Shown in pieces: positions 1 to 12,408 of a stretch of 64,000 bases of DNA (its first letter is position 1; each line of letters begins with the position of its first letter). Where the stretch lies: positions 3,872,001 through 3,936,000 of the forward strand of contig OZ245842.1 in NCBI GenBank assembly GCA_965228895.1. Direction: 5' to 3'. The notes under the pieces are model-generated. The model was not told the DNA's origin. It worked only from the letters and a program-made list of their open reading frames with translations, and searched no databases. Source of the DNA: Alphaproteobacteria bacterium. Lineage in GTDB: Bacteria; Pseudomonadota; Alphaproteobacteria; SP197. A program made the translations under genes and the position numbers.

Positions 1-1088
1 TCCCAATAGAACTTGGCCTTGTCGGGATCGTAGTCGTGCTGCGGAATGTCGCGGCAATAGGTCGGCAGTCCCGGGTTGACCGGGAAGTCGTTGGCGACAA
101 CGCCGTGACCCAGCAACACATTGTCGACGAGATACTGGCGATCGACGCAATGCTTCATGGCCAGCCGGACATTCAGATCGCTGGTCGGCGCGCGATCGCA
201 CATCATATCCCAGATGAAGAACGAACCCGACGGCGTCGATACCACGTTGACGTTGGGATCCTGAGCCAACAGGCTGGCCAGACGCGGCTCGACACGCAAC
301 GTCATGTCGACATCGCCGGACTTCAACGCGTTGCCGCGCGACGCGTTGTCCGGAATGCCCTGGGTGACGAAGGTATCGACATGGCCGGCGCCTTCGTTCC
401 AGTAATTGCCGAACTTCTCGGTTACCGATTCACGGCCCGGCTCAAAATCGGTCAGACGATAGGGGCCCGTGCCGTTCACTGGATCGCCGTCGACCCAGCC
501 TTCGTGAACGATCGACGTGTGATAGTCGTGACCCATCAGAACCGGGAAGTCCGCATTGCCGGAGTTCAGCGTGATGACCAGGACATGATCGCCATCAGCC
601 TTCATGTCGACAATCGGCGACAGCAACGGCTTGGACGGTGACTCCGAGCCTTCCTTGATGTGCTCGTTGATCGAATAGATGGCATCGGCCGCCGTGAACG
701 GCTTGCCGTCATGGAACTCGACGCCTTCGCGCAGCTTGAAGGTCCAGACCTTGGCTTCTTCGGAGGATTCCCATTCGGTCGCCAGGTTCGGCACGACATT
801 CAGATCGCGGTCCAGGTTGGTCAGGCGATTATAGACCTGATAGGCCCGCTGAATGTCCGTCGAGTTGGTCATCTTGGTCGGATCGAAGGTCTCTTCGGCG
901 CCGGCATATTCCGGCGCAACAACCGCCGTGCCGCCCTTTTTGGGTTCAGCCGCGACACCTGCCGTCGACATCATGGTTGTGGCGGCAGCCGCCGTTACAC
1001 CCAGAGCACTGGCACGTCCGACAAATTCGCGACGCGACATTTTGCCGGCTTTGGCCTGCTCGAGGTACCAGTCTAGTTGTTTGGTCAT
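1..1088 (-). CDS. ABC transporter substrate-binding protein, family 5 (peptide/nickel-type), Tat-exported; 3' end outside window
   Basis: Not in ORF track; my translation of the minus strand: MTKQLDWYLEQAKAGKMSRREFVGRASALG...EPKKGG...VPNLATEWESSEEAKVWTFKLREGVEFHDGKPFTAAD. SRREF twin-arginine motif, SBP_bac_5 signature, GGGAG RBS upstream. Confidence 0.88.
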   Translation of the reverse strand, partial: MTKQLDWYLEQAKAGKMSRREFVGRASALGVTAAAATTMMSTAGVAAEPKKGGTAVVAPEYAGAEETFDPTKMTNSTDIQRAYQVYNRLTNLDRDLNVVPNLATEWESSEEAKVWTFKLREGVEFHDGKPFTAADAIYSINEHIKEGSESPSKPLLSPIVDMKADGDHVLVITLNSGNADFPVLMGHDYHTSIVHEGWVDGDPVNGTGPYRLTDFEPGRESVTEKFGNYWNEGAGHVDTFVTQGIPDNASRGNALKSGDVDMTLRVEPRLASLLAQDPNVNVVSTPSGSFFIWDMMCDRAPTSDLNVRLAMKHCVDRQYLVDNVLLGHGVVANDFPVNPGLPTYCRDIPQHDYDPDKAKFYW

Positions 1089-1338
1089 TCTCATCTCCCA
1101 GTCACGCTATTGGCGGCGCCGAGCGCCTCTTGTTGTCGCCGGTCGTCCCGCCGCTCCGCGCGAAGTCTAGCGGATCATCCGGAAAACGAAAGGCATTGCC
1201 AAAACAATTAGGATTGACCCGACCGCCGGTTTCTGGCCCGAAAACGACCGCAATTCCGCCAGTTTTGTATGGCGTGGTCATAACGCGCCGACGATCGATC
1301 AGGTTAGCCCGCACGATCATCTGAACAGCTATCGGTCA

Positions 1339-3048
1339 TCATCTGAGCATGTAGAGCTGTGCCAGCGCCAAGCGGTCAACCGGATCGCACCAGGCCCGTT
1401 CGCCGTCGACCGTGACGTCAAAGGTCTGGTTGTCGACCGTAATCTCCGGCAGCGCATCGTTCAGATGCATCGATGCCTTCGACAGCGTTCGCGTGCCGCC
1501 CAGCGGCAACAGCATGCGGCCAAGACCCAGCCGGCCGGCAAGGTCACCGTCGATGGCGCTGGGATGAACGAAGGTCGCCGACACGGCCTGTGGCGCCAGA
1601 CCATGGGCGCCCCACTGCTCGCGCAGGATAATCGGATCGGCGCCGGTGATGCTGGCCGCTGAATCGCCCATGGCCGCCCAGGCCGTGAAACCGCCCTTGA
1701 TTACGACGCTGGGTTTGATGCCGAAGAAGGCCGGCTTCCACAAAACGATATCAGCGAGCTTACCGGTTTCGAGCGAACCGACATGACGGTCGATGCCGAA
1801 CACCCGGGCCGCGTTGATTGTGTATTTGGAGAGGTATCGCAGGACGCGCCGGTTGTCGGCGCCGTCGATCGGCTCGCCGTCCAACGCACCGCGCTGATCG
1901 CGCATCTTGCTCGCCAACTGCCAGCAACGCGCGATCACCTCGTTGATGCGTCCCATGCCCTGGCTGTCGGAGCCGAACATGGAGATGGCGCCGATGTCGT
2001 GAAGAATATCCTCCGCAGCGATGGTCTGCGCGCGGATCCGGCTCTCGGCAAAGGCGACGTCCTCCGGCACATGCGGGCTCAGGTGATGCACCGTCATGGT
2101 CATGTCGAGATGTTCGTCGAACGTGTTGAGCGTGAAGGGATTGGTCGGGTTGGTCGATGACGGCAGGCAGTTGGCCTCGCCGTTGCAGCGGATGATGTCC
2201 GGCGCATGGCCGCCGCCTGCGCCTTCGGTGTGATACATGTGAATGGCGCGCCCGCCGATCGCCGCCATGGTGCTCTCGTAAAAGCCCGCTTCGTTCAGCG
2301 TGTCCGTGTGGATCTGGACCTGAAAGTCCATCTCGTCGGCGACCGAGAGACAGCAATCGATGGTCGCCGGCATCGCACCGTAATCCTCGTGGATCTTGAC
2401 GCCGATGGCGCCGCCGGCGATGTGGGCGCGGATGCCATCGGGATCATGACAACTGCCGCGTGTCAGAAAACCGAGATTCATCGGCATGGCGTCGCTTGCC
2501 TTGAGCATGTTACCGGTCGTCCAATCGCCACCGGAATCGACACCGAACAGAATACCGTGCCCACCGCCAATCATGGTCGTCAGGCCGGCCGACAGGGCGT
2601 GGCGCACAAGGGCCGGGCTCTTGTGATGGACGTGCACGTCGATGCCGCCGGGCGTTGCGATCAGCCCGTCGCCATGGGCCACCAGCGTCGCCGGCCCACA
2701 GATGAGATCGGGATGCACGCCATCCATGACCGCCGGATTGCCGGCCTTGCCAAGACCGACGATACGCCCTTCGCGCACGCCCAGATCGCCTTTGACGACA
2801 CCCAGCATCGGGTCGATGACCAACACGTTGTGGACAACGAGGTCCAGCGCGCCGTCTGCTTGACTGTGGCTCGCCTGAAAACCCATGGCATCGCGGAACG
2901 ACTTGCCGCCGCCGGTGGTGAGCTCCTCGCCCGGCACGCCGTGATCATGTTCGACCTCGGCGACCAGCGACGTGTTGGCAAGGCGCACGCGGTCGCCCTT
3001 GGTCGGCCCGTACATGGCGGCATAGGCCGCCCGTGTCATGACTGCCAT
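1339..3048 (-). CDS. ureC: Urease subunit alpha, divergent
   Basis: [53 protein letters not shown]; 569 aa. Confidence 0.92.
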
Positions 3049-3057
3049 GGTCCGCTC

Positions 3058-3759
3058 CTATGCGCCGTTGAACCCACGATCGCGTGCGCGGTCCAGGGCG
3101 GCGGCACGGACATCGGGATCGTGGACCGACCCGTTGGTCAGGTTGTTGAAACCGGAGACCCGCCCCTCGCCGCCAATCGCGACAAGATCGACGTCACGCG
3201 CTTGCCCCGGTTCGAACCGTTGCGCGGTGCCGGAAGGAATATCGAGACGTTTGCCAAAGGCCGCCTCACGATCGAACGAAAGCGCCGGGTTAACCTCGAA
3301 GAAGTGGAAGTGACTGCCGACCTGCACCGGCCGGTCGCCGGTATTCAGTACGCTAATGGTCGCTTTGTCGCGCCCAGCGTTCAGTTCGATATCGCCATCG
3401 GGCGTCACCACTTCACCGGCGCGCGCATCGTTGCCGTCGGCGAGTTTGTCACTGCCCGGTCGGATCGGGTCGTGCACGGTGATCAGCTTGGCACCGTCTG
3501 GGAACAGGCCTTCGACCATGATGACCGGCAGCAGTCGGGTAACGCCCGGCAGAACATCGTCGGTCGTCAGCAGCGTCGCGCCCCATCCCATCAGGTCTTT
3601 GACCGAACGGCCTTCCCGCGCGCCTTCCAGCAGCGCGTCGGCGATAAAGGCATGGGCCTCGGGGTGGTTGAGTTTAAGGCCCTTCTCCTTGCGCCGGCGC
3701 GCCATCTCGGCGGCGACAAAGATCGTCATGCGCTCCATCTCGGTCGGTGTCAGCATCAT
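3058..3759 (-). CDS. ureAB: Fused urease gamma/beta subunit
   Basis: N-terminal LTPTEMER...LNHPEA...[14 protein letters not shown] (gamma) followed by [19 protein letters not shown]...RFEPG (beta). Confidence 0.93.
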
Positions 3760-3808
3760 GGTCTCGCCACTCCCGTCATTGTTCCTCTATCTTAGGGCGA
3801 TAGCTCGC

Positions 3809-3943
3809 TAGAGCAGATCCCGTTTTGGTGGAATCGCTTCGCGATTCCGTCAAGACGGGTGAATCTGCTCTACTCATAAATCGAGAGCGGGCCATGGTTA
3901 GGTGGAACCGTCAAACGGTTCTACCTAACCATGGCCCGCTCTA
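3809..3943. repeat. Bipartite palindromic repeat (TAGAGC...GCTCTA family), copy 1
   Basis: Two long hairpins, 3809-3872 and 3883-3943; homologous copies at 19181-19318 and 48670-48808 in the opposite orientation. Confidence 0.9.
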
Positions 3944-3954
3944 GGGTGCACGCG

Positions 3955-4793
3955 ATGACAGACATGAAACAATTTGATCCAGGTGCCCAGAATGACTGGA
4001 TCTTCGACGCGGTGGCCCGAGACGGCGGTGCCATCGTTGAAGGCGTGCTGAATCGCGGTTTCTTTGCCGCGCTGCGCGACGAACTGGCCGGTTCGATCGA
4101 CGAAGCGCAGCCGGGAAGCCGGTCCGGCAACACACGTGTCGAGGGTTTTCACGGTGCCAACACCAAACGCATCTGCAGTCTGGCGCGCCGCTCGCCGGCC
4201 TTTGTCGACCTCATGCTGCACCCCCTGCTGCTTGCCTTCGCCGACCGCTTTCTACTGCCGGCCTGCAGCGACTACTGGCTCAACACCGGTCAGCTGATGA
4301 TCGTCGGCCCGGGTGAGCCGGCGCAGCGGCTGCATCGCGACGAAGGCAACTGGCCCTATCAGCCGTGGCCGGGACCGGAGGGACGGTGAGTTCCATGTGG
4401 GCGTTGTCGGACTTCACGGCTGAGGTCGGCGCGACCCGCGTGATACCGGGCAGCCATCTTTGGTCCGAACGCGATGAAGACGGCGATGACAGCGAGGCGG
4501 TCCAAGCCGTGATGCCGGCCGGCTCGGTCCTGCTTTATTCGGGCAAGGTCCGCCATGGCGCCGGCGCCAACCAAACGGCGGACACCTGGCGCTGGGGCCT
4601 TCATGTGAGCTACGTGGTCGGATGGCTGCGGCCGGAAGAAAACCACAACATGGCCGTGCCGATCGATACCGCACGGGATCTGCCGGAGCGCGCCCAGGCG
4701 CTGCTCGGTTACACATCGTATGTCCCCGACAAGGGCGGACGCTTGGGTCTGGTGGAGTTCGAGGATGCCGCGCTGGTGACGCGGGGGCCGTAG
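3955..4793 (+). pseudogene. Phytanoyl-CoA dioxygenase (PhyH) family Fe(II)/2OG oxygenase, frameshifted near 4381
   Basis: N-half (QRLHRDEG) in one frame; C-half (TVSSMWALSDFT...GATRVIPGSH...HGAGAN...WLRPEEN) in another; one base apparently missing at ccggag|gg|acggtg. Confidence 0.8.
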
Positions 4794-4802
4794 GCATCTG
4801 GA

Positions 4803-5753
4803 CTAGGCGCTCAGCGCGTCACCCCAGCGGTTACGGATGGCGGCTTCGACCATCTGCGGTGTCAATCCGCTCATCATCGTTCCCGTGGTCCGGGTGTCGT
4901 AATCCGGACCGCCGATCAGCTCGTCGATGGATTCCGGCGTTCTGACGACCAGACCGTTCGGCCCCCAAGGCCCGTAATGAATATCATTGGTCGGGCCGAA
5001 CAGGCCGACTGTCGGCCGGCCGGTGGCCGCCGCCAGATGCATCATGGCGGAATCGTTACCGACAAAAAGCCGGCAACGGCGCATCGCGGCAAACGTCGAC
5101 AGCACGTCGACACCCATGCCGTCGATCAACCGATCCCCTGGCACACCGTCAAAGATCGGCTGCGCGGTCGCACGCTCGTTTTCCGCGCCGACCAGAAGCA
5201 GCCGCGAACCCTCCAGCGCGCCGCCTGGCGCCAGCAGCCGGTTGGCCAACTCCACAAAGCTTTGCGCCGGCCAGATCTTGCCTGGCCAAGAGGCGCCCGG
5301 CGCAATCGCGACGATGTCACCGCCATCACCAACAAGTTCGTGGGCCCGCTCTTCGTGGGTGGCATTGGTCCAGACATAGGGATCAAGTGGCGGTGATCCG
5401 AGAACCGACGCGTTCATCACCACACGGTGAACCGGCGCGGTGTTCTTGGGCAGAACACGCCGTTCCTCGGCACGCAACACATAGGGCATGGCCGTGCGCC
5501 GAAGATCGACGACAACCCGCCAGCGCTGCCCAACGGTCTCACGCCAAAGATCAAACCAGTGCAATGAATGACGCCGTTTGCGAATGACGTGGATGCGCGC
5601 CAGGCGTGGCGCTGCCTCGAACACCTTGGCGGCGGGCGCACCGCAAGCGATCGTTACCGCGTCATCGGGGTAATCGTCGAGCAGCCGTTTCAACACGCCC
5701 GACGAAAGAATGGCATCGCCAATATATGTCGAGGTGATGAACAGGATGGCCAT
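4803..5753 (-). CDS. Glycosyltransferase family 9 (LPS heptosyltransferase-like)
   Basis: IGDAILS, APGASWPGKIWP, FVGNDSAMMHLAAA, GLFGPT motifs. Confidence 0.88.
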   Translation of the reverse strand: MAILFITSTYIGDAILSSGVLKRLLDDYPDDAVTIACGAPAAKVFEAAPRLARIHVIRKRRHSLHWFDLWRETVGQRWRVVVDLRRTAMPYVLRAEERRVLPKNTAPVHRVVMNASVLGSPPLDPYVWTNATHEERAHELVGDGGDIVAIAPGASWPGKIWPAQSFVELANRLLAPGGALEGSRLLLVGAENERATAQPIFDGVPGDRLIDGMGVDVLSTFAAMRRCRLFVGNDSAMMHLAAATGRPTVGLFGPTNDIHYGPWGPNGLVVRTPESIDELIGGPDYDTRTTGTMMSGLTPQMVEAAIRNRWGDALSA

Positions 5754-5783
5754 GATGTCGAAAGCGCAGCGTGACTGCTGGGG

Positions 5784-6170
5784 TCAGTACGCGGCGTAGG
5801 ACTTTTCTTCGGCGATGTCGGAACCCAGATGCTCGTTGATCTGCTTCTTCAGCGCCGCCCTCTGATCGTTCTCGACATAGACCGAGCGGGCGAGTTCGAC
5901 AAACCGGGCGTCGAAATTCTGCGAACGCTCGTGTTCGCGGATCTCGTCCTCGATCTCCCAAAGCCGTTCGTTGACCGCTTTCAAAGCGCGCTTGTTGTCA
6001 TCGATCACCGCGGACGGGTCGATGTGGCGTGATGCCGACAGTTCGAGTGTCGCTTTTTCACGCCGGATGTTCTCAAGCTTGGCGGGATCTAAGATCCGCT
6101 CTTCCTTGATCTCAAGGATCGTCAGCTTGTCCAACAGTTCCCCGGGCGAGACTTCCACGCTTATCCGCAC
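5784..6170 (-). CDS. DUF6165-like hypothetical protein
   Basis: VSPGELLDKLTILEIK...LWEIEDEIR...LARSVYVENDQRAALK...EEKSY; GTG start after GGAGG. Confidence 0.75.
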   Translation of the reverse strand: MRISVEVSPGELLDKLTILEIKEERILDPAKLENIRREKATLELSASRHIDPSAVIDDNKRALKAVNERLWEIEDEIREHERSQNFDARFVELARSVYVENDQRAALKKQINEHLGSDIAEEKSYAAY

Positions 6171-6359
6171 ATGTCCTCCATGGGCCGGCCCCAATTCAAG
6201 GGCGCATAAAGAGTGCGACGCACGCCTTAAGCTGTTGCCGGCAATGTTTCAAGGCGTCTGAAAGCTTGGAGTTCGCGGCAGGGCAAGGATGGGGTCGCGT
6301 ATCCCGGCCTCCTGTCGCTTATCTCGCGGGCCGGGGCACCGACCATGTTCGTTTTTGCA

Positions 6360-6494
6360 TCAGGCCTTACGGCCGCCAGCCTTTGTTTTCGGCTCGCCGG
6401 TCTCTTCGACCTGTCGACTGGATCCGCGCTTCTCGATCTTCTGCCAGTCTTTCATCAGTGACCAAACGACACCGCTCATCGGTCCACCAATCAT
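6360..6494 (-). CDS. Small protein (44 aa) divergent from LysR regulator
   Basis: AAAGGAGA RBS then ATG; MIGGPMSGVVWSLMKDWQKIEKRGSSRQVEETGEPKTKAGGRKA*; below ORF-track cutoff. Confidence 0.55.
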   Translation of the reverse strand: MIGGPMSGVVWSLMKDWQKIEKRGSSRQVEETGEPKTKAGGRKA

Positions 6495-6568
6495 TGTCAG
6501 TCTCCTTTCTTCAATCTGTTGTTTCCCTAAACGTGGCGCCGATACGGGCCTTGCGGGAGCCGCTAATT

Positions 6569-6580
6569 ACGGATATCCGT
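6569..6580. promoter_or_regulatory. Perfect 12-bp palindrome ACGGATATCCGT in divergent promoter region; candidate LysR site
   Basis: Lies between the small ORF start and the LysR start. Confidence 0.35.
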
Positions 6581-6621
6581 TATGCGTTTGTGGAAGGTCA
6601 GCTGGCAGGAGCGATACACAG

Positions 6622-7539
6622 ATGAATTGGGATGATCTGAAGATCCTGGATGCGGTTGCGGCGACGCGGAGCCTCTCAGCAGCCGCCAGAAAGCTCGGAT
6701 TCAGCCAGCCCAAGCTGTCGCGGCGCCTGCGCGCGCTTGAGGATACGGTCGGCGCGCGCCTGTTCGACCGCCTGCCCACGGGCTTGGCACCAACGCCGGC
6801 GGGCGAACGGCTGATCCCGCTGGTCGCCGAGATGGCGGTCGCCGCCGAAGCGGTCGAGCGCCAGGCCCCGTCGCTGCCGGAAGCCGCCACCGGAACGGTC
6901 AGGATTTCGGCGCTCGAGACCCTGTGCGTGTTCCTGGGCGAACATATGGATGAGCTGTGCGATATCGCGCCCGGCCTATCGTTCGAACTGATTACCAACC
7001 ATGCGGACGTCAGCCTGTCGCGGCGCGAGGCCGACCTTCTGATCCGGGCCTGCCTGCCCGATGGCGCCAGTCTGGTGTCGCGCCGTATCGCCGATCTGGC
7101 CTACGCGGTCTATGGCACCCATGACTATGTCTCGCGCCACCCTTCGGCGCAGTCGGACGCGATGTTCAGCGATTGCGCCTGGGTCGGCTTTGCCGAGGAT
7201 CGTCTCTTCTTTCCCGGCGCCAAGCGCTGGCTGGATGAACGCACAGACCGTGCGCCCCTGGTGCAGGTGACCGAGATCGGGTCGGCCCATGCCGCCGTCC
7301 GGTCCGGTATCGGCCTCGGCGTCCTGCCCTGCGTCACCGGCGACGCCGACCACGATCTCGTACGGCTGAGTGAGCCCATTCCGGAACTGATGGACAAACT
7401 GCATTTGCTGATACATCGCGACGTCCTGCGCGAACCGGCGGTCCGAACCGCGACCGACGCGCTCGCCACGGTCTTCAAACGTCATCGTTCGGTGCTGATG
7501 AGCGAGCTGGCGGAGAAGGCCCGCGTTCAAGCAGCCTAA
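6622..7539 (+). CDS. LysR family transcriptional regulator
   Basis: [43 protein letters not shown]; [11 protein letters not shown]; start trimmed to ATG 6622. Confidence 0.92.
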
Positions 7540-8642
7540 CAGGTGAGAACACCCCGCTCGACCTGATCGCGCTCGATGGATTCGAAGAGCGCGCGGAAAT
7601 TGCCTTCGCCGAACCCTTCATCGCCCTTGCGCTGAATGATCTCGAAGAAGATCGGGCCGATGACAGTCTTGGTGAAGATTTGCAACAAGACACCGCCGCC
7701 CGGCGAACCGTCGACAAGAATGCCGTGGCGCGCCAGGGCCTCGATATCTTCCGCGTGGCCCGGCAGACGCTCATCGGTCATGGCGTAATAGGTCTCCGGC
7801 GGCGGCGCCATGAAGTCGGTGCCGGCCGCTTCAAGCGCCTTCACCGTCGCGACGATATCGTCGGTGGCAAGAGCGATGTGCTGAATGCCCTCGCCGTGAT
7901 AGGCCTTGAGATATTCCTCGATCTGGCTCTTGTCGTCAGCGCTTTCGTTGATCGGGATGCGGATCTTGCCGCACGGGCTCGTCATCGCCTTGGATTTCAG
8001 CCCCGTCAGCTTGCCTTCGATGTCGAAGTAGCGGAGTTCGCGGAAGTTGAAGAGCCGCTCATAGAAGCCCGCCCAGTCGTCCATGCGGCCGCGGTGTACG
8101 TTATGGGTCAGGTGATCGACGCCGGCGAGACCGACACCTTTTGGCGCCCATACCGGATCGAGCGAGGCGCCGTCGATCGGCACGAAGTCGATGTCATAGA
8201 TCGACCCCTTCAAGCCATAGCGGTCGACCAGATAAATCAGGCTGCCGCCGATGCCCTCGATCGCCGGAATGTTGAGCTCCATCGGCCCGATGCGCGAGTC
8301 GACACCGCGCGCGCCCAACTCGATGGCGCGCGCGTAAGCCTTACCCGCATCGGCGACCCGAAGCGCCATGGCACAGGCGCTGGGACCATGAACTCTGGCG
8401 AACGACTGCGCGAAGCTGTCGGGCTCCGCGTTAACGATGAAATTGATGTCGCCCTGGCGCCACAACGTTACGTCCTTCGACCGATGGCGCGCGATGGCGC
8501 GAAAACCCAGTTGTTCGAAGAGCCTGGCAAGCTCGCGCGTATCCGGTGCGGTGTATTCGACAAACTCGAAACCGTTCGTTCCCATCGGGTTTTCGGCCGA
8601 GATACGGCCTGCCAATGCGTCAAAGCCCAGGGATGTGCTCAT
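7536..8642 (-). CDS. hppD: 4-hydroxyphenylpyruvate dioxygenase
   Basis: [61 protein letters not shown]. Confidence 0.97.
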
Positions 8643-9478
8643 GACAACCTCCGCAGCTTGCGGGCTTCTTCGAGACCGTTCCAGAACACCTGCACACCGT
8701 CCAACATCTGGCGCCCGGCGGTGATGAAGCTCTCCTCGTCGAAGTCCAGGGGGCCGAAATAGAGATCCTTCAACTCAGCCATCGTGTGCGCGGCGTGCTG
8801 GTCCTCGATCTTGTCGTGCCAGCGGAAGAAGCCGAGGTTGAGATCGAGGCCGGACCGTACCTTGAAACTTTCAAGACCGGCGATCAGCTGTTTCCAGAAA
8901 CCGGCGGCCGCCCAGTTCTCGACAGCAAAGCCGGCACCGGCGGAGACCGAAAAGTCGTCGCTGCCGTAGAGCCGGATCAACTCGTCGCAGAACGCCAGCG
9001 TCGCGGGCGTGCCGACCGACCGGCGGCCGAGATCGCCAAACCTCAAACCCAGCGGCGCGGCAAAGTGCAGCAGCCATTCGTAGTGGGCGGCGCGGAAACG
9101 GAAGGTGCCGCCATCGACCGTGCCTTCGATGCCGACGATGTCGGGGTCGACATCCTTGTCGGATGCCCCCTGCTTGTCTGTCTGCCGGGCGCGAAAGACG
9201 ACACCCAACTCATTGGCCAGGATCTCCTTGGCGGCCCGCATCTCTTCCACATTGGCCGCGTTGATGACGCGCTGGGTCTGGGCGATCAGAAATTGGTTCG
9301 AGAAGACAGAGAACTGCCGCGTGAAATCGACGACGTCATCGTGGCTCAGCTCGGCACGGGCGAACCACGCGCAATAGCGGTTGTCGGTGATCGCGGGATG
9401 GCTGAACAGTTCCGCCGCAAGGCGGTCCTGAAAAAGATCAAACGACGACACCGCGTTGCCTAAAGCTGCTTGGCTCAT
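8639..9478 (-). CDS. Heme-oxygenase-like diiron oxidase (HDO; CADD/PqqC/TenA fold)
   Basis: [10 protein letters not shown]-terminus; ligand pattern ILANE...AAH...AVE...WHDKIEDQH; VFWNGL C-terminus; ATGA overlap with hppD. Confidence 0.75.
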
Positions 9479-9634
9479 GCTCCCTACACTCCCTTCGGCG
9501 CGGCGCGCGCCGACCAGTTGCCCCTGTGCCTTCCAATATGGGCGCATGACCACGCGAAGTCCTTGCGATGTCTTGGACCTAAGCTCTTAGGTATGCAAAT
9601 ATCGTGCATGGAGTAATCATATCGAGACGATTTC

Positions 9635-10111
9635 ATGCACCCTGTTGACCTCGACCCCTTCGACGTCGCCATCTTGAACGCGCTCCAGGCCAACGCGCGG
9701 ATGTCGAGCGTGGCCATGGCGGATCAGGTCCACCTGTCGTCATCCCAGATCACCCGGCGCCTGAAGCGGCTGGAAGAAACCGGTGTCATCCGCCGTTATG
9801 CCGCATTGCTGGAACCGGCGGCGCTGGGGCTTGGTCTTATGGCCTTCACCAGTGTTTCCCTGGACGTTCAGACCAAGGACACCGCCCATGACTTTCATCA
9901 GGCGATGCTGAAACTGCCGGCGGTGCTGGAGTGTTACTCAACGACCGGCGACGCCGACTTCTTGATCAAGATCGTCAGCCGTGATCTCGCGAGCTTCTCC
10001 GATCTTCTGATGAACGACATCATGCCGCTGCCCCATGTGCGCAACGTGCGTTCCAGCATCGTGCTAAGCGAGTTGAAGAACACGACGACGCTGGAACTGA
10101 ATGACGTCTAG
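9635..10111 (+). CDS. Lrp/AsnC family regulator, divergent from HDO-hppD
   Basis: LDPFDVAILNALQANAR...LKRLEETGVIRRY...ECYSTTGDADFLIKIV. Confidence 0.95.
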   Translation: MHPVDLDPFDVAILNALQANARMSSVAMADQVHLSSSQITRRLKRLEETGVIRRYAALLEPAALGLGLMAFTSVSLDVQTKDTAHDFHQAMLKLPAVLECYSTTGDADFLIKIVSRDLASFSDLLMNDIMPLPHVRNVRSSIVLSELKNTTTLELNDV

Positions 10112-10136
10112 AGCGTCGCCTGTCTGTTTGGCATTA

Positions 10137-10205
10137 CCTGCCCACTCCCCCGCCCGGCCAACCATGGCAGCATCCTCGGGGTGGCCGGGCGGGGGAGTGG
10201 GCAGG
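10137..10205. repeat. GC-rich hairpin repeat (24-bp perfect stem), copy 1
   Basis: CCTGCCCACTCCCCCGCCCGGCCA-21 nt loop-TGGCCGGGCGGGGGAGTGGGCAGG; second copy at 28963-29030. Confidence 0.85.
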
Positions 10206-10241
10206 CCACGGACCGCGCGAGCGAGCAACAGCTTAGCGCGC

Positions 10242-10278
10242 ACAAAGAAGACGGGCCGGACGTTGCCGCCCGGCCCGT
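10242..10278 (-). terminator. Probable intrinsic terminator of the betaine-type SBP gene
   Basis: Minus strand: ACGGGCCGG...CCGGCCCGT hairpin followed by CTTCTTTGT. Confidence 0.55.
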
Positions 10279-10300
10279 GATCGCTCTTGTTTATGTGCCG

Positions 10301-11239
10301 TCAGGAACCGCCGGCCATCGCTTCGTCGACAAAGGGCTGCCAATAATCCTGGTTGGCATCGACCCATTCGCTGACGACGACCTCAAGGTCCTCGCCGTCG
10401 TTGTCGATACGGCCCATCAGCTCTTCCTGAATCTGGTTGTTCAGGTGATAGGTGTTGATGAAACGCCACGCTGTCGGCCACTGCTCTTCCATGCCGGGCC
10501 ATGCCGACTTGAAGACGCGCGGCTTCTGCAGGCTGTACTCGTTGACCACGTCCTCGGGCATCTCGACCCAGCCGTAGTCCTGGGTGAACAGCACCCAATG
10601 GGGCGACCAGAACATCATGACCAGCGGTGACTGGCGCTCCACCGCGCTGTTCAACTCGGCAACCAGCGCGCCTTCGCTGCCGGCGGGAATGGCGACGAAC
10701 GGAATGCCGGTACCCTCGATAATCTGTTCGGAACGGTTGCTCCAGTCAGCGGGATAGGAGACCAGACGCCCATCCGGCAGCGTCTCCGGCGTCGCGAACA
10801 GATCGGAGCAGCCGAGGAACGCATCCCAATCGGGCAGGCCCGGGCACAGTTCCTCGACATGGATCGGGTAGAGCCAGCCCTCACGCGCGTCGAGGCCGAC
10901 ATCACCGACATCGGCGACACTGCCGTCTTCCAGTTTGCTGGGGAAGTACTCGCCCAAATTGTTGTCCCACAGCTCCAGACCCAGATGGATCTGGCCGTCG
11001 GCGATGGCATTGGCCATCGGCAGCACGGCCGCCGTTACGTACTCCACGTTATAGCCCATGCGCTCCAGGATCTGCCCGGCGATGTGCGACGTGATGTGCT
11101 GACCGGTCCACTCGTTGATCCCGATGACGATCGGCTCATCGGATTCCGGTACGTTTTGTGCCTGTGCGCCGGTCGCAAGACCGATGGCAAGCGCGACGCC
11201 AGCCACGGCGCCCAAAAGCTTTCTGCCCAACAAACCCAT
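10301..11239 (-). CDS. Glycine betaine/TMAO-type ABC substrate-binding protein (ProX/TmoX-like)
   Basis: Signal peptide (AQA), PESDEPIVIGINEWTGQ, EGWLYP...CPGLPDW, FWSPHW; start at ATG 11239. Confidence 0.85.
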   Translation of the reverse strand: MGLLGRKLLGAVAGVALAIGLATGAQAQNVPESDEPIVIGINEWTGQHITSHIAGQILERMGYNVEYVTAAVLPMANAIADGQIHLGLELWDNNLGEYFPSKLEDGSVADVGDVGLDAREGWLYPIHVEELCPGLPDWDAFLGCSDLFATPETLPDGRLVSYPADWSNRSEQIIEGTGIPFVAIPAGSEGALVAELNSAVERQSPLVMMFWSPHWVLFTQDYGWVEMPEDVVNEYSLQKPRVFKSAWPGMEEQWPTAWRFINTYHLNNQIQEELMGRIDNDGEDLEVVVSEWVDANQDYWQPFVDEAMAGGS

Positions 11240-11373
11240 AACGTTTCCTCCCACTTCTTGCTTGTGACCTCTAAGTGCGTTCGCCCGCCTGCAACGTGCA
11301 TCGCGGACGCGACATGAAGTCATTCTAATCATGTGAAACGGGATTCAGAAACCCCGGCGCAGGCCAATCAGAC

Positions 11374-12324
11374 TTATCGCAGTGTCCTGAACCCATCGGC
11401 GACCTCAACCAGGGCCCGCGCAATGCCGGGCTCGCTGACCGCATGTCCGGCATCGGCGACGACGAGATAGCGGGCCTCCGGCCAGGCCCGCGCCAGCGCA
11501 TCCGCGCCGGAGGGTGGACAAACGACATCGTAGCGACCCTGGACGATCGCGCCGGGAATGGCGCGAAGAGGTTCGATTTGGCGCAGCAGCTGGTTCGGCT
11601 TCAGCCAAGCCTTGTTCGCGAAATAGTGACACTCCAGGCGCGCCAGGCTGAGCGCCTTTGTGTCGTCAGCGAAGTCGTCGACCAGCCCGGGATTGGGCAG
11701 CAGTGTCACGCAGGATCCCTCGTAGCGGGCCCAGGCCCGCGCCGCCGGCAGGTGAACCGCGGGATCCCGATCAAGCAGACGGCGGTGGTAGGCAGAAAGG
11801 AGATCACCGTGCTCGTCGTCAGGAATGGCCGCGAGAAAATCGCGCTCGGCTTCGGGGAAGAACCGGCCCATGCCATGCAAGAACCAATCGATGTCGCTAT
11901 CGCGGCACAGAAAGATGCCGCGCAGCATTAGGCTGATGCAGCGTTCGGGATGAGTCCCGGCGTAGGCCAGCGACAGCGTGCTGCCCCACGATCCGCCCGC
12001 GACATGCCAACGTTCGATGCCAAGCTGTTCGCGCAGACGCTCCATATCCGCGACCAGATGCCAAGTCGTGTTATCCGTCACATCAGCGTGGGGCGTTGAA
12101 CGGCCAACGCCGCGCTGGTGGAACAGCACGATGCGGTAGTGATCGGGGTCGAACAGGCGTCGGGCCTCAGGCGATGTCGGCGCGCCCGGCCCGCCATGAA
12201 CGTAAACGACCGGCACGCCATCGGGATTGCCTGCCTGATCCCACGCCATGGTGTGGCGATCATCCAACGGCAGCATGCCGGAGTCATAGGCCTCAATGGC
12301 CGGATAAGGCGTTTTCTGAGTCAT
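11374..12324 (-). CDS. pip: Proline iminopeptidase
   Basis: VHGGPG, QRGVGRSTP, GGSWGSTL, LRGIF, VQGRYDVVCP, DAGH. Confidence 0.95.
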   Translation of the reverse strand: MTQKTPYPAIEAYDSGMLPLDDRHTMAWDQAGNPDGVPVVYVHGGPGAPTSPEARRLFDPDHYRIVLFHQRGVGRSTPHADVTDNTTWHLVADMERLREQLGIERWHVAGGSWGSTLSLAYAGTHPERCISLMLRGIFLCRDSDIDWFLHGMGRFFPEAERDFLAAIPDDEHGDLLSAYHRRLLDRDPAVHLPAARAWARYEGSCVTLLPNPGLVDDFADDTKALSLARLECHYFANKAWLKPNQLLRQIEPLRAIPGAIVQGRYDVVCPPSGADALARAWPEARYLVVADAGHAVSEPGIARALVEVADGFRTLR

Positions 12325-12408
12325 CGGCGGCACCTCTACCACTAATTTGCGCCGATCCACGGCGAGACGGTAAAATGCCGCCAACAATCGGGGCACACCT
12401 TATAGCCA

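Follow-up and report, generated by a model that had tools for sequence, protein, structure and literature searches.

A fused-type urease gene pair with clade-specific active-site changes, encoded far from the single ureE-ureF-ureG-ureD cluster of an uncultured alphaproteobacterium

Introduction

Urease is regarded as having a single substrate, and the canonical nickel ureases of Klebsiella aerogenes (UreABC) and Sporosarcina pasteurii are among the closest described relatives of the enzyme considered here. The active-site passages of PMC7433671 assign roles in urea binding and catalysis to His219, Asp221, His320, and Arg336, and describe how the backbone carbonyl of Ala167 in the K. aerogenes enzyme (Ala170 in S. 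pasteurii), together with the oxygen of Ala366, serves as hydrogen-bond acceptor for the urea nitrogen bound to Ni(2). Here, we analyze a urease gene pair, ureAB and ureC, in a stretch of 64,000 nucleotides (the window) from the genome of an uncultured alphaproteobacterium (assembly GCA_965228895.1, contig OZ245842.1, positions 3,872,001 to 3,936,000). We favor, with slightly better than even confidence, the reading that this pair encodes a functional nickel-dependent urease isozyme of a clade that we call A1, matured in trans, with urea as the most likely substrate.

Two-gene ureases with a gamma/beta fusion are also found in Helicobacter. The H. pylori enzyme (UreAB) has a cysteine in its flap motif, and H. 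mustelae UreA2B2, an iron urease, is encoded without adjacent accessory genes and is independent of accessory proteins. The window pair shares the two-gene architecture and the fusion with these enzymes; its identity to them is only 48-50%, no closer than to other solved ureases. Fused genes have also been described outside Helicobacter. In Bradyrhizobium sp. BTAi1, Pseudomonas syringae B728a, and Streptomyces, a 2008 study noted additional urease clusters in which ureA and ureB are fused. These group away from the typical UreC of the host, and horizontal transfer was suggested for them; the account gives no functional data (PMC2492869). Their likeness to the window pair, as used here, is one of gene fusion.

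Results

The window encodes an intact urease with fused gamma and beta subunits

The window pair consists of intact urease-family enzyme genes, a gamma/beta fusion plus an alpha subunit, closely spaced on the minus strand. The product of ureAB (positions 3058..3759; P0002) is a single protein of 233 amino acids that matched the Pfam families Urease_gamma at residues 1-99 and Urease_beta at 115-210, as well as the NCBIfam model NF009671, 'bifunctional urease subunit gamma/beta', at 333 bits (cut-off 243). The product of ureC (positions 1339..3048; P0001, hereafter the window UreC) has 569 amino acids and scored 749.9 bits against the equivalog model TIGR01792, whose cut-off for urease membership is 680; the canonical copies of five named genomes discussed below all scored higher (963-983 bits in four, 854 in the fifth). 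These matches bear out the gamma/beta fusion described in an initial annotation made from the sequence alone, and every motif quoted there was found in the translation of ureC. An AlphaFold2 (AF2) model of the window UreC, built from a 39-row alignment (predicted local distance difference test score, pLDDT, 84.8; predicted template-modeling score 0.90), matched 39 solved urease chains with template-modeling (TM) scores of 0.89-0.93 at 46-53% identity. The next-best fold, dihydroorotase, reached a TM score of 0.44. The flap and the Gly-rich loop of the model have pLDDT values below 60.

Because the pair is one of two urease paralogs in its genome and adjoins a PhyH-family gene that is a pseudogene in this strain, it might be thought a redundant or decaying duplicate without a function of its own. 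We consider this very improbable. The ratio of nonsynonymous to synonymous substitution rates (dN/dS), determined against two congeneric genomes, was 0.046-0.051 for ureC and 0.053-0.058 for ureAB, and values of ~0.05 indicate that both genes are under strong purifying selection. Both were also intact in a second sequencing run from another study, with 17 substitutions in 2877 bases. Moreover, the catalytic residues are invariant over 41 A1 sequences with identities down to ~69%, except for a valine at Asp221 in one of them.

Metal ligands and catalytic residues are kept, and surrounding segments change by clade

The window UreC has the same fold as the K. aerogenes and S. pasteurii enzymes (TM score 0.93; ~53% identity), and its residues were mapped through a HMMER alignment (616 bits) with the K. 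aerogenes enzyme. As the initial annotation had stated, all metal ligands are present: His139, His141, Lys218, His247, His273, and Asp361 align with His134, His136, Lys217, His246, His272, and Asp360 of the K. aerogenes enzyme, and His220, Asp222, His321, and Arg337 align with the catalytic His219, Asp221, His320, and Arg336. To place these residues in context, we tabulated 104 aligned sequences (7 canonical, 26 of clade B, 41 of clade A1, 22 of clade A2, 5 other members of clade A, and 3 distant ones; clades are defined in the next section). The six metal ligands were invariant in 104/104 sequences, in every clade, and so were His219, Gly277, His320, Arg336, and Met364 (K. aerogenes numbering, used from here on unless the window UreC is named). 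Asp221 was kept in 103/104.

The segments around this core differ from those of canonical ureases. The window UreC has Val320 in place of the flap Cys (MTVHH), Tyr223 in place of Trp222 (HEDYG), and Gly in place of Ala363, and it has neither the canonical loop GGGTGPA.GT.ATT with its Ala170-type carbonyl nor the flap Cys. Some of these changes are widespread, and others mark single clades. The replacement of Ala363 by Gly and the short loop are common to all non-canonical clades rather than particular to the window UreC. Specific to A1 are the replacement of Thr159, at the GGG-T-G position, by His (41/41), of Trp222 by Tyr (40/41), and of Cys319 by Val, Ile, or Ala (41/41); in an HH subgroup of A1, Gln362 is replaced by Met in 24/31 sequences, and the window UreC retains the Gln. 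A2 retains Cys319, and is instead marked by Leu or Ile at position 222 (22/22), Thr, Ser, or Asn at His321 (22/22), and Ala at Ser361 (20/22). Clade B retains Trp222, Cys319, and His321 in 26/26 sequences. Thus, the departures from canonical sequence listed in the initial annotation are present in the window UreC, the loop being four residues shorter; two of them, SDSQGMGR and the altered loop in its shortness, occur in clade B as well.

The window UreC falls in a separate clade of fused-type ureases

Among the best 120 homologs (clustered at 90% identity), 91 are proteins of ~570 amino acids with HEDWG, MVCHH, and, in all 91, SDSQGMGR. The other 29, including the window's own entry, have no Trp222 or no readable HED.G motif, and their flap sequences differ. 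Those of the ~570-residue homologs that we inspected carry the loop GGSLGPITVGIDCGG, which is near the length of that in the window UreC and 3-4 residues shorter than the canonical one. A protein library clustered at 50% identity was too coarse to separate the clades.

We inferred a tree from 98 rows with IQ-TREE in quick mode (LG+G4 model), rooted on three long-branch representatives, with Shimodaira-Hasegawa-like approximate likelihood-ratio test (SH-aLRT) values as the only measure of support. Canonical ureases (7 rows) and fused-type ureases (88 rows) formed separate clades, each with a support of 100. The fused-type clade splits into clade B (26 rows; support 98) and clade A (62 rows; support 98), and clade A comprises A1 (38 rows, with the window UreC), A2 (22 rows, with the second paralog of the same genome), and two singletons. 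Because the tree puts the window UreC in the well-supported clade A, it is not nested among ordinary ureases. It is most likely a side branch, a satellite paralog descended from the fused-type ureases whose genes as a rule are embedded in ureE-ureF-ureAB-ureC-ureG-ureD operons. A1 is rare: among 400 further genomes sampled from across the class, none had a match at E<=1e-262. All of the nearest homologs are annotated 'urease subunit alpha', as is every homolog, and they give no phenotype because all of them are records from metagenome-assembled genomes (MAGs).

The sister clade, B, includes by record title proteins of Methyloversatilis universalis, Rhodopseudomonas, Bosea, Ancylobacter, and Hansschlegelia. 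The window pair resembles the clade-B clusters in its fused gamma/beta subunit, similar short loop, SDSQGMGR motif, and 63-68% identity, and differs from them in having HEDYG, MTVHH, and GGGHGI... where clade B has HEDWG, MVCHH, and GGSLGP.... In all five named clade-B genomes that we checked, another UreC outscored the clade-B copy against TIGR01792 (854-983 versus 808-836 bits), so that the phenotypes of these organisms do not reveal what clade B does. Unlike these genomes, in which a canonical urease stands alongside, the window genome has neither a canonical nor a clade-B enzyme.

A second paralog and a single, distant accessory cluster

The window genome is a single contig of 5.53 Mb, 98.7% complete, which allowed us to ask what other urease genes it holds. 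Exactly two UreC genes scored above the cut-off, the window copy and a second one at C1:2812712-2814421 (736 bits); the profile search found no canonical or clade-B UreC in the genome. A second ureABC, for which the initial annotation had proposed a search, is thus present as one further fused-type pair. It spans C1:2812014-2814421 and likewise consists of a gamma/beta fusion and an alpha subunit; the pair is 64% and 62% identical to that of the window, and the two alpha subunits align without gaps. The pocket of the second paralog is altered in another way, with GGGFPGCWSVDSGG, HEDIG, MLCHS, and SDAEGMGR.

The initial annotation had noted that ureD, ureE, ureF, and ureG do not flank the window pair, and indeed none lies within the 64-kb window. 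An intact set is found elsewhere, 116 kb from ureAB and ureC: four consecutive genes, ureE-ureF-ureG-ureD, on the minus strand at C1:3989974-3992591 (positions 7974-10591 of locus L008, G000:C1:3982001-3999000), without structural genes. UreE scored 180 bits (cut-off 162). The sole ureG of the genome, at C1:3990824-3991411, scored 249 bits (cut-off 204) and lies ~54 kb past the end of the window. Nothing intervenes between ureF and ureG, which are 18 nucleotides apart. In 47 of 75 clade-B loci the order is ureE-ureF-ureAB-ureC-ureG-ureD, and the cluster of the window genome has this order minus the structural genes, with accessory proteins 45-80% identical to those of clade B; unlike in clade B, the window ureAB-ureC pair does not sit between ureF and ureG. 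An arginase-family ureohydrolase gene is located 2 kb upstream of ureE (118 bits against an agmatinase model, below its cut-off), and the genome also encodes a candidate NicO-family nickel/cobalt transporter.

UreC and ureG co-occur in related genomes

Citing the accessory-independent iron urease UreA2B2 of H. mustelae, the initial annotation had suggested that the window enzyme may use a different metal. The two-gene architecture and the lack of accessory genes in the window would suit an enzyme of that kind, which assembles its metal center without UreDEFG, and the title of the UreA2B2 structure entry indicates that iron can occupy these same ligands. We find this reading improbable, and the argument from gene neighborhood fails for three reasons. 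First, the window genome keeps an intact ureE-ureF-ureG-ureD set although it has no other urease type for it to serve, and thus does not dispense with UreDEFG. Second, in a survey of 41 related genomes, a UreC match (E<=1e-100) occurred in 24, one ureG above the cut-off occurred in exactly the same 24, and the remaining 17 had neither. Third, canonical-type ureABC genes are likewise unlinked: those of G009, G012, and G015 have no accessory gene within 7 kb, and each of these genomes has one ureG. The absence of ureDEFG next to the window pair is therefore not evidence for accessory independence. In addition, the identity of the window UreC to UreB2 (3qga_C) is 48%, within the 46-53% range for solved ureases, and thus reveals no specific kinship to the iron enzyme. 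Maturation in trans by UreE, UreF, UreG, and UreD, with nickel as the metal, would fit these observations.

We classified 38 loci from the related genomes by motif and neighbors. Ten genomes had A1, and nine of these also had A2 by motif. A2 was the sole UreC in G003, G010, G014, G018, and G020, where ureG lay on another contig or hundreds of kilobases off. Together with the layouts of G009, G012, and G015, these cases show that unlinked structural genes combined with a single accessory cluster are the rule in this family. In G008, the sole UreC was a basal-A2 protein (HEDLG, MLCHN) encoded inside a full E-F-AB-C-G-D cluster. Outside the class, three gammaproteobacterial MAGs carried an A1-type copy (flap MVAHR) and a clade-B copy adjoining ureG; the two copies are 8 kb apart on one contig in G046, so that A1 relatives there also have a clade-B cluster with ureG close by. 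Two of these three MAGs had a third UreC copy. No ureG was seen in a fourth MAG, of unestablished completeness, that has an A2 copy.

Among 79 genome loci retrieved with 8-kb flanks, 75 were of clade B, including the 47 with full clusters mentioned above. Eight others had ureF only (L043-L045, L047, and L052-L055, in which more than 3 kb of downstream sequence contained no ureE, ureG, or ureD), two had no accessory gene, and the rest were cut by contig ends. In a metagenome scan, the 80 matches listed comprised 74 clade-B loci and 6 others.

At G004:C33:8873-17357 (L120), a clade-B cluster lies directly beside two UrtA-like genes, which scored 451 and 354 bits (cut-off 492.75). At G023:C1:1812364-1827902 (L121), a detached clade-B ureC covers only query residues 1-512 and a second, weaker ureC-like match is nearby; this ureC may be a truncated or rearranged copy.

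Urea or a related substrate

Urea as the substrate of the window enzyme is suggested by the full catalytic set, the passing of the equivalog cut-off, the lack of another client for UreEFGD, and the ureohydrolase gene beside the accessory cluster. Its metal ligands and its catalytic His, Asp, and Arg are the same as in canonical ureases, and the window genome contains UreDEFG-type genes. The apoenzyme would most likely be activated in trans by the single UreE/UreF/UreG/UreD set encoded 116 kb away, through carbamylation of Lys218 and GTP-dependent nickel insertion. Two nickel ions would then be held by His139, His141, carbamylated Lys218, His247, His273, and Asp361 (window numbering). His220 would polarize the urea carbonyl, a bridging hydroxide would attack, and the flap residue His321, held by Asp222 and Arg337, would act as the acid. 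Because no urea ATP-binding cassette (ABC) importer was found, the urea would probably be made inside the cell.

Several observations weigh against this reading. First, the Ala170-type loop of the window UreC is 4 residues shorter than the K. aerogenes loop GGGTGPAAGTHATTCTPG. Second, 6 of the 12 fixed differences between A1 and clade B fall in active-site segments, where 1.8 are expected (~3-fold enrichment; hypergeometric p 0.004); we defined these segments, 83 of 569 positions, ourselves and the sequences are related, and thus the enrichment is no more than indicative. Third, the two paralogs of the window genome have pockets unlike the canonical one and unlike each other, each pattern being conserved within its clade. 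Fourth, A1 was never the only UreC of a genome; the tenth A1 genome, G002, has two partial matches besides. Fifth, the window genome has no UrtA or urea carboxylase at the cut-off, and no UrtA (E<=1e-60) was found in genomes with clade-A-only or clade-A-plus-canonical UreC; in G033, UrtA adjoins a canonical urease. Finally, the solved structures include none from clade A or B, the best match to the window UreC being 53% identical, and full-text searches of the literature yielded no biochemical study of a clade-A or clade-B enzyme or of a urease homolog with another substrate.

These points would be accommodated if clade A consisted of urease-fold nickel hydrolases that act on small urea-like compounds with unchanged catalytic machinery and UreEFGD maturation, a possibility to which we give a minor but appreciable share of belief. 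Candidate substrates, named as tentatively, are N-substituted ureas, N-carbamoyl compounds, hydroxyurea, short amides, and guanidine-type molecules, which might be delivered by the binding protein encoded next to ureC or released by the neighboring 2-oxoglutarate (2OG) oxygenase. Such a shift is consistent with the conserved, clade-specific replacements in A1 (Thr159, Trp222, Cys319) and A2 (Trp222, His321, Ser361), the enrichment of fixed A1-B differences in active-site segments, the coexistence of up to three paralog types with A1 never alone, the lack of UrtA in clade-A-only genomes, and the rarity of A1 (0/400). The genomic context of A1 gives weak hints only: the order ureAB-ureC-binding protein is kept at 76-95% identity, and a 2OG oxygenase gene adjoins A1 in two lineages, of the PhyH type here and of the DIOX_N type in L105 and L141.

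Other findings speak against such a shift. All side chains known to bind urea or its analogues are unchanged; the contacts that differ are made by backbone carbonyls or by residues of the second shell. Clade B, whose genes form part of complete urease operons, likewise has the short loop and the Ala363-to-Gly replacement. Mutant studies showed that K. aerogenes urease can do without its flap Cys, and the solved matches to the window UreC include structures of the K. aerogenes C319A, C319S, C319D, and C319Y variants. Context is not conserved, as the A1 genes of six genomes of genus g4 lie among housekeeping genes; in this strain the PhyH gene is frameshifted; the binding protein has an orphan paralog at 76% identity and about nine more at 38-42%; and the oxygenase link in L105 and L141 counts as one event because both loci belong to one subclade.

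A bolder proposal, which we hold a shade more doubtful still, is that clade A as a whole (A1 and A2) has kept the catalytic core and UreEFGD maturation while its pockets were re-tuned for nitrogen compounds that resemble urea, such as N-substituted ureas, carbamoyl compounds, or guanidine-type molecules. The re-tuned features would be the shorter Ala170-type loop, the new invariant His at the GGG-T-G position, the smaller residues at Trp222 and Cys319, and the variable His321, an assignment that is just as speculative. This proposal would explain why up to three paralog types are served by a single accessory cluster and, if true, would give the urease fold its first activity on a compound other than urea.

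Urea isozymes remain our preferred reading. As this locus shows, one uncultured alphaproteobacterial family has a radiation of fused-type urease paralogs, each with a conserved active-site pattern of its own and all relying on one stripped-down ureEFGD cluster. If all paralogs split urea, they would exemplify isozyme specialization with maturation in trans, which matters when urea cycling is interpreted from metagenomes; a paralog with a different substrate would provide a new nickel-enzyme activity and a new organic-nitrogen route.

Genes and repeats around the urease pair

Downstream of ureC, on the same strand and after a gap of 244 nucleotides, is the gene for a family-5 solute-binding protein (positions 3..1094, minus strand; Pfam SBP_bac_5), which runs off the start of the window and has a full length of 533 amino acids. 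It carries the twin-arginine motif SRREFV, in agreement with the Tat-exported binding protein of the initial annotation. The adjacent ABC system postulated there does not exist, because this is an orphan binding protein with no permease or ATPase gene after it. Two congeners (95% identity) and contig L141 (76% for both UreC and the binding protein) retain the order ureAB-ureC-binding protein. The best solved relatives of the binding protein are DppA, AapF, and NikA (E 1e-33 to 1e-25), and its best NCBIfam match is a nickel NikA-type model (129 bits, cut-off 600); as all are distant or far below the cut-off, they are not informative about the ligand. Binding proteins 37-38% identical to this one also occur near gammaproteobacterial and clade-B loci. 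We rejected them as a sign of linkage, because the window genome itself has about nine paralogs at 38-42% and such identities are therefore at the level of paralogs.

Beyond the binding protein and just past the start of the window (locus L009, G000:C1:3858001-3878000, positions 6582-12345), a gene for an MttB-family methyltransferase that lacks an in-frame stop is flanked by two LysR regulator genes. Further along are genes for a DAO-family oxidase, a choline-sulfatase-like protein, and a GMC oxidoreductase. The block suggests quaternary-amine or choline-sulfate catabolism. In L141, MttB and choline-sulfatase genes are likewise found near the urease genes.

The second paralog has different neighbors (locus L007, G000:C1:2805001-2822000, genes at 5540-11937): a class-III aminotransferase, a DUF6790 protein, a GNAT acetyltransferase, and a Creatinase_N/M24 hydrolase, the last with ectoine hydrolase DoeA as its best NCBIfam match at 163 bits, far below the cut-off of 575. 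M24, aminotransferase, and short-chain dehydrogenase/reductase neighbors recur beside A2 copies in another genus at 70-75% identity.

Divergent from ureAB is the PhyH-family 2OG/Fe(II) oxygenase gene (positions 3931..4793, plus strand; Pfam PhyH). The initial annotation was right about the family of this neighbor and did not recognize that the gene is frameshifted in this strain. Its sequence is divided between two reading frames, 3931-4389 and 4365-4793, which match positions 3-122 and 124-210 of the PhyH profile. Relative to two congeners, in which the open reading frame is intact (289 and 282 amino acids), it has a 1-nucleotide deletion near 4381; contigs of run X2, from another study, have an extra T behind 4381, which is not present in run X1, possibly the source sample. 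Based upon the deletion relative to the congeners and run X2, we regard the gene as a strain-specific pseudogene. The PhyH protein has its solved relatives among natural-product oxygenases of fungi and bacteria, which offer no lead. In L105 the DIOX_N-type oxygenase gene is the immediate upstream neighbor of ureAB, and in L141 it is 2.8 kb upstream; the two proteins are 77% identical.

No riboswitch or other RNA reached the Rfam gathering score in 130,495 bases (the window plus L007, L105, L141, and L037), and a scan of positions 900-4100 found one promoter-like and one terminator-like site, no more than in shuffled sequences. The divergent intergenic region between ureAB and the PhyH gene (3760..3930) contains a dispersed repeat and part of a long palindrome. 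The repeat, at 3805-3880, has inverted ends (TAGAGCAGAT...) and includes a 20-mer that occurs seven times in the genome; the other copies are at G000:C1:273443, 276886, 642086, 1370806, 2865252, and 2906951. Contig depth spikes ~20-fold at 3794-3920. The palindrome, at 3884-3945, is imperfect, with arms of ~25 nucleotides that differ by one mismatch and both contain CCATGG; it occurs once in the genome and overlaps the predicted start codon of the PhyH gene.

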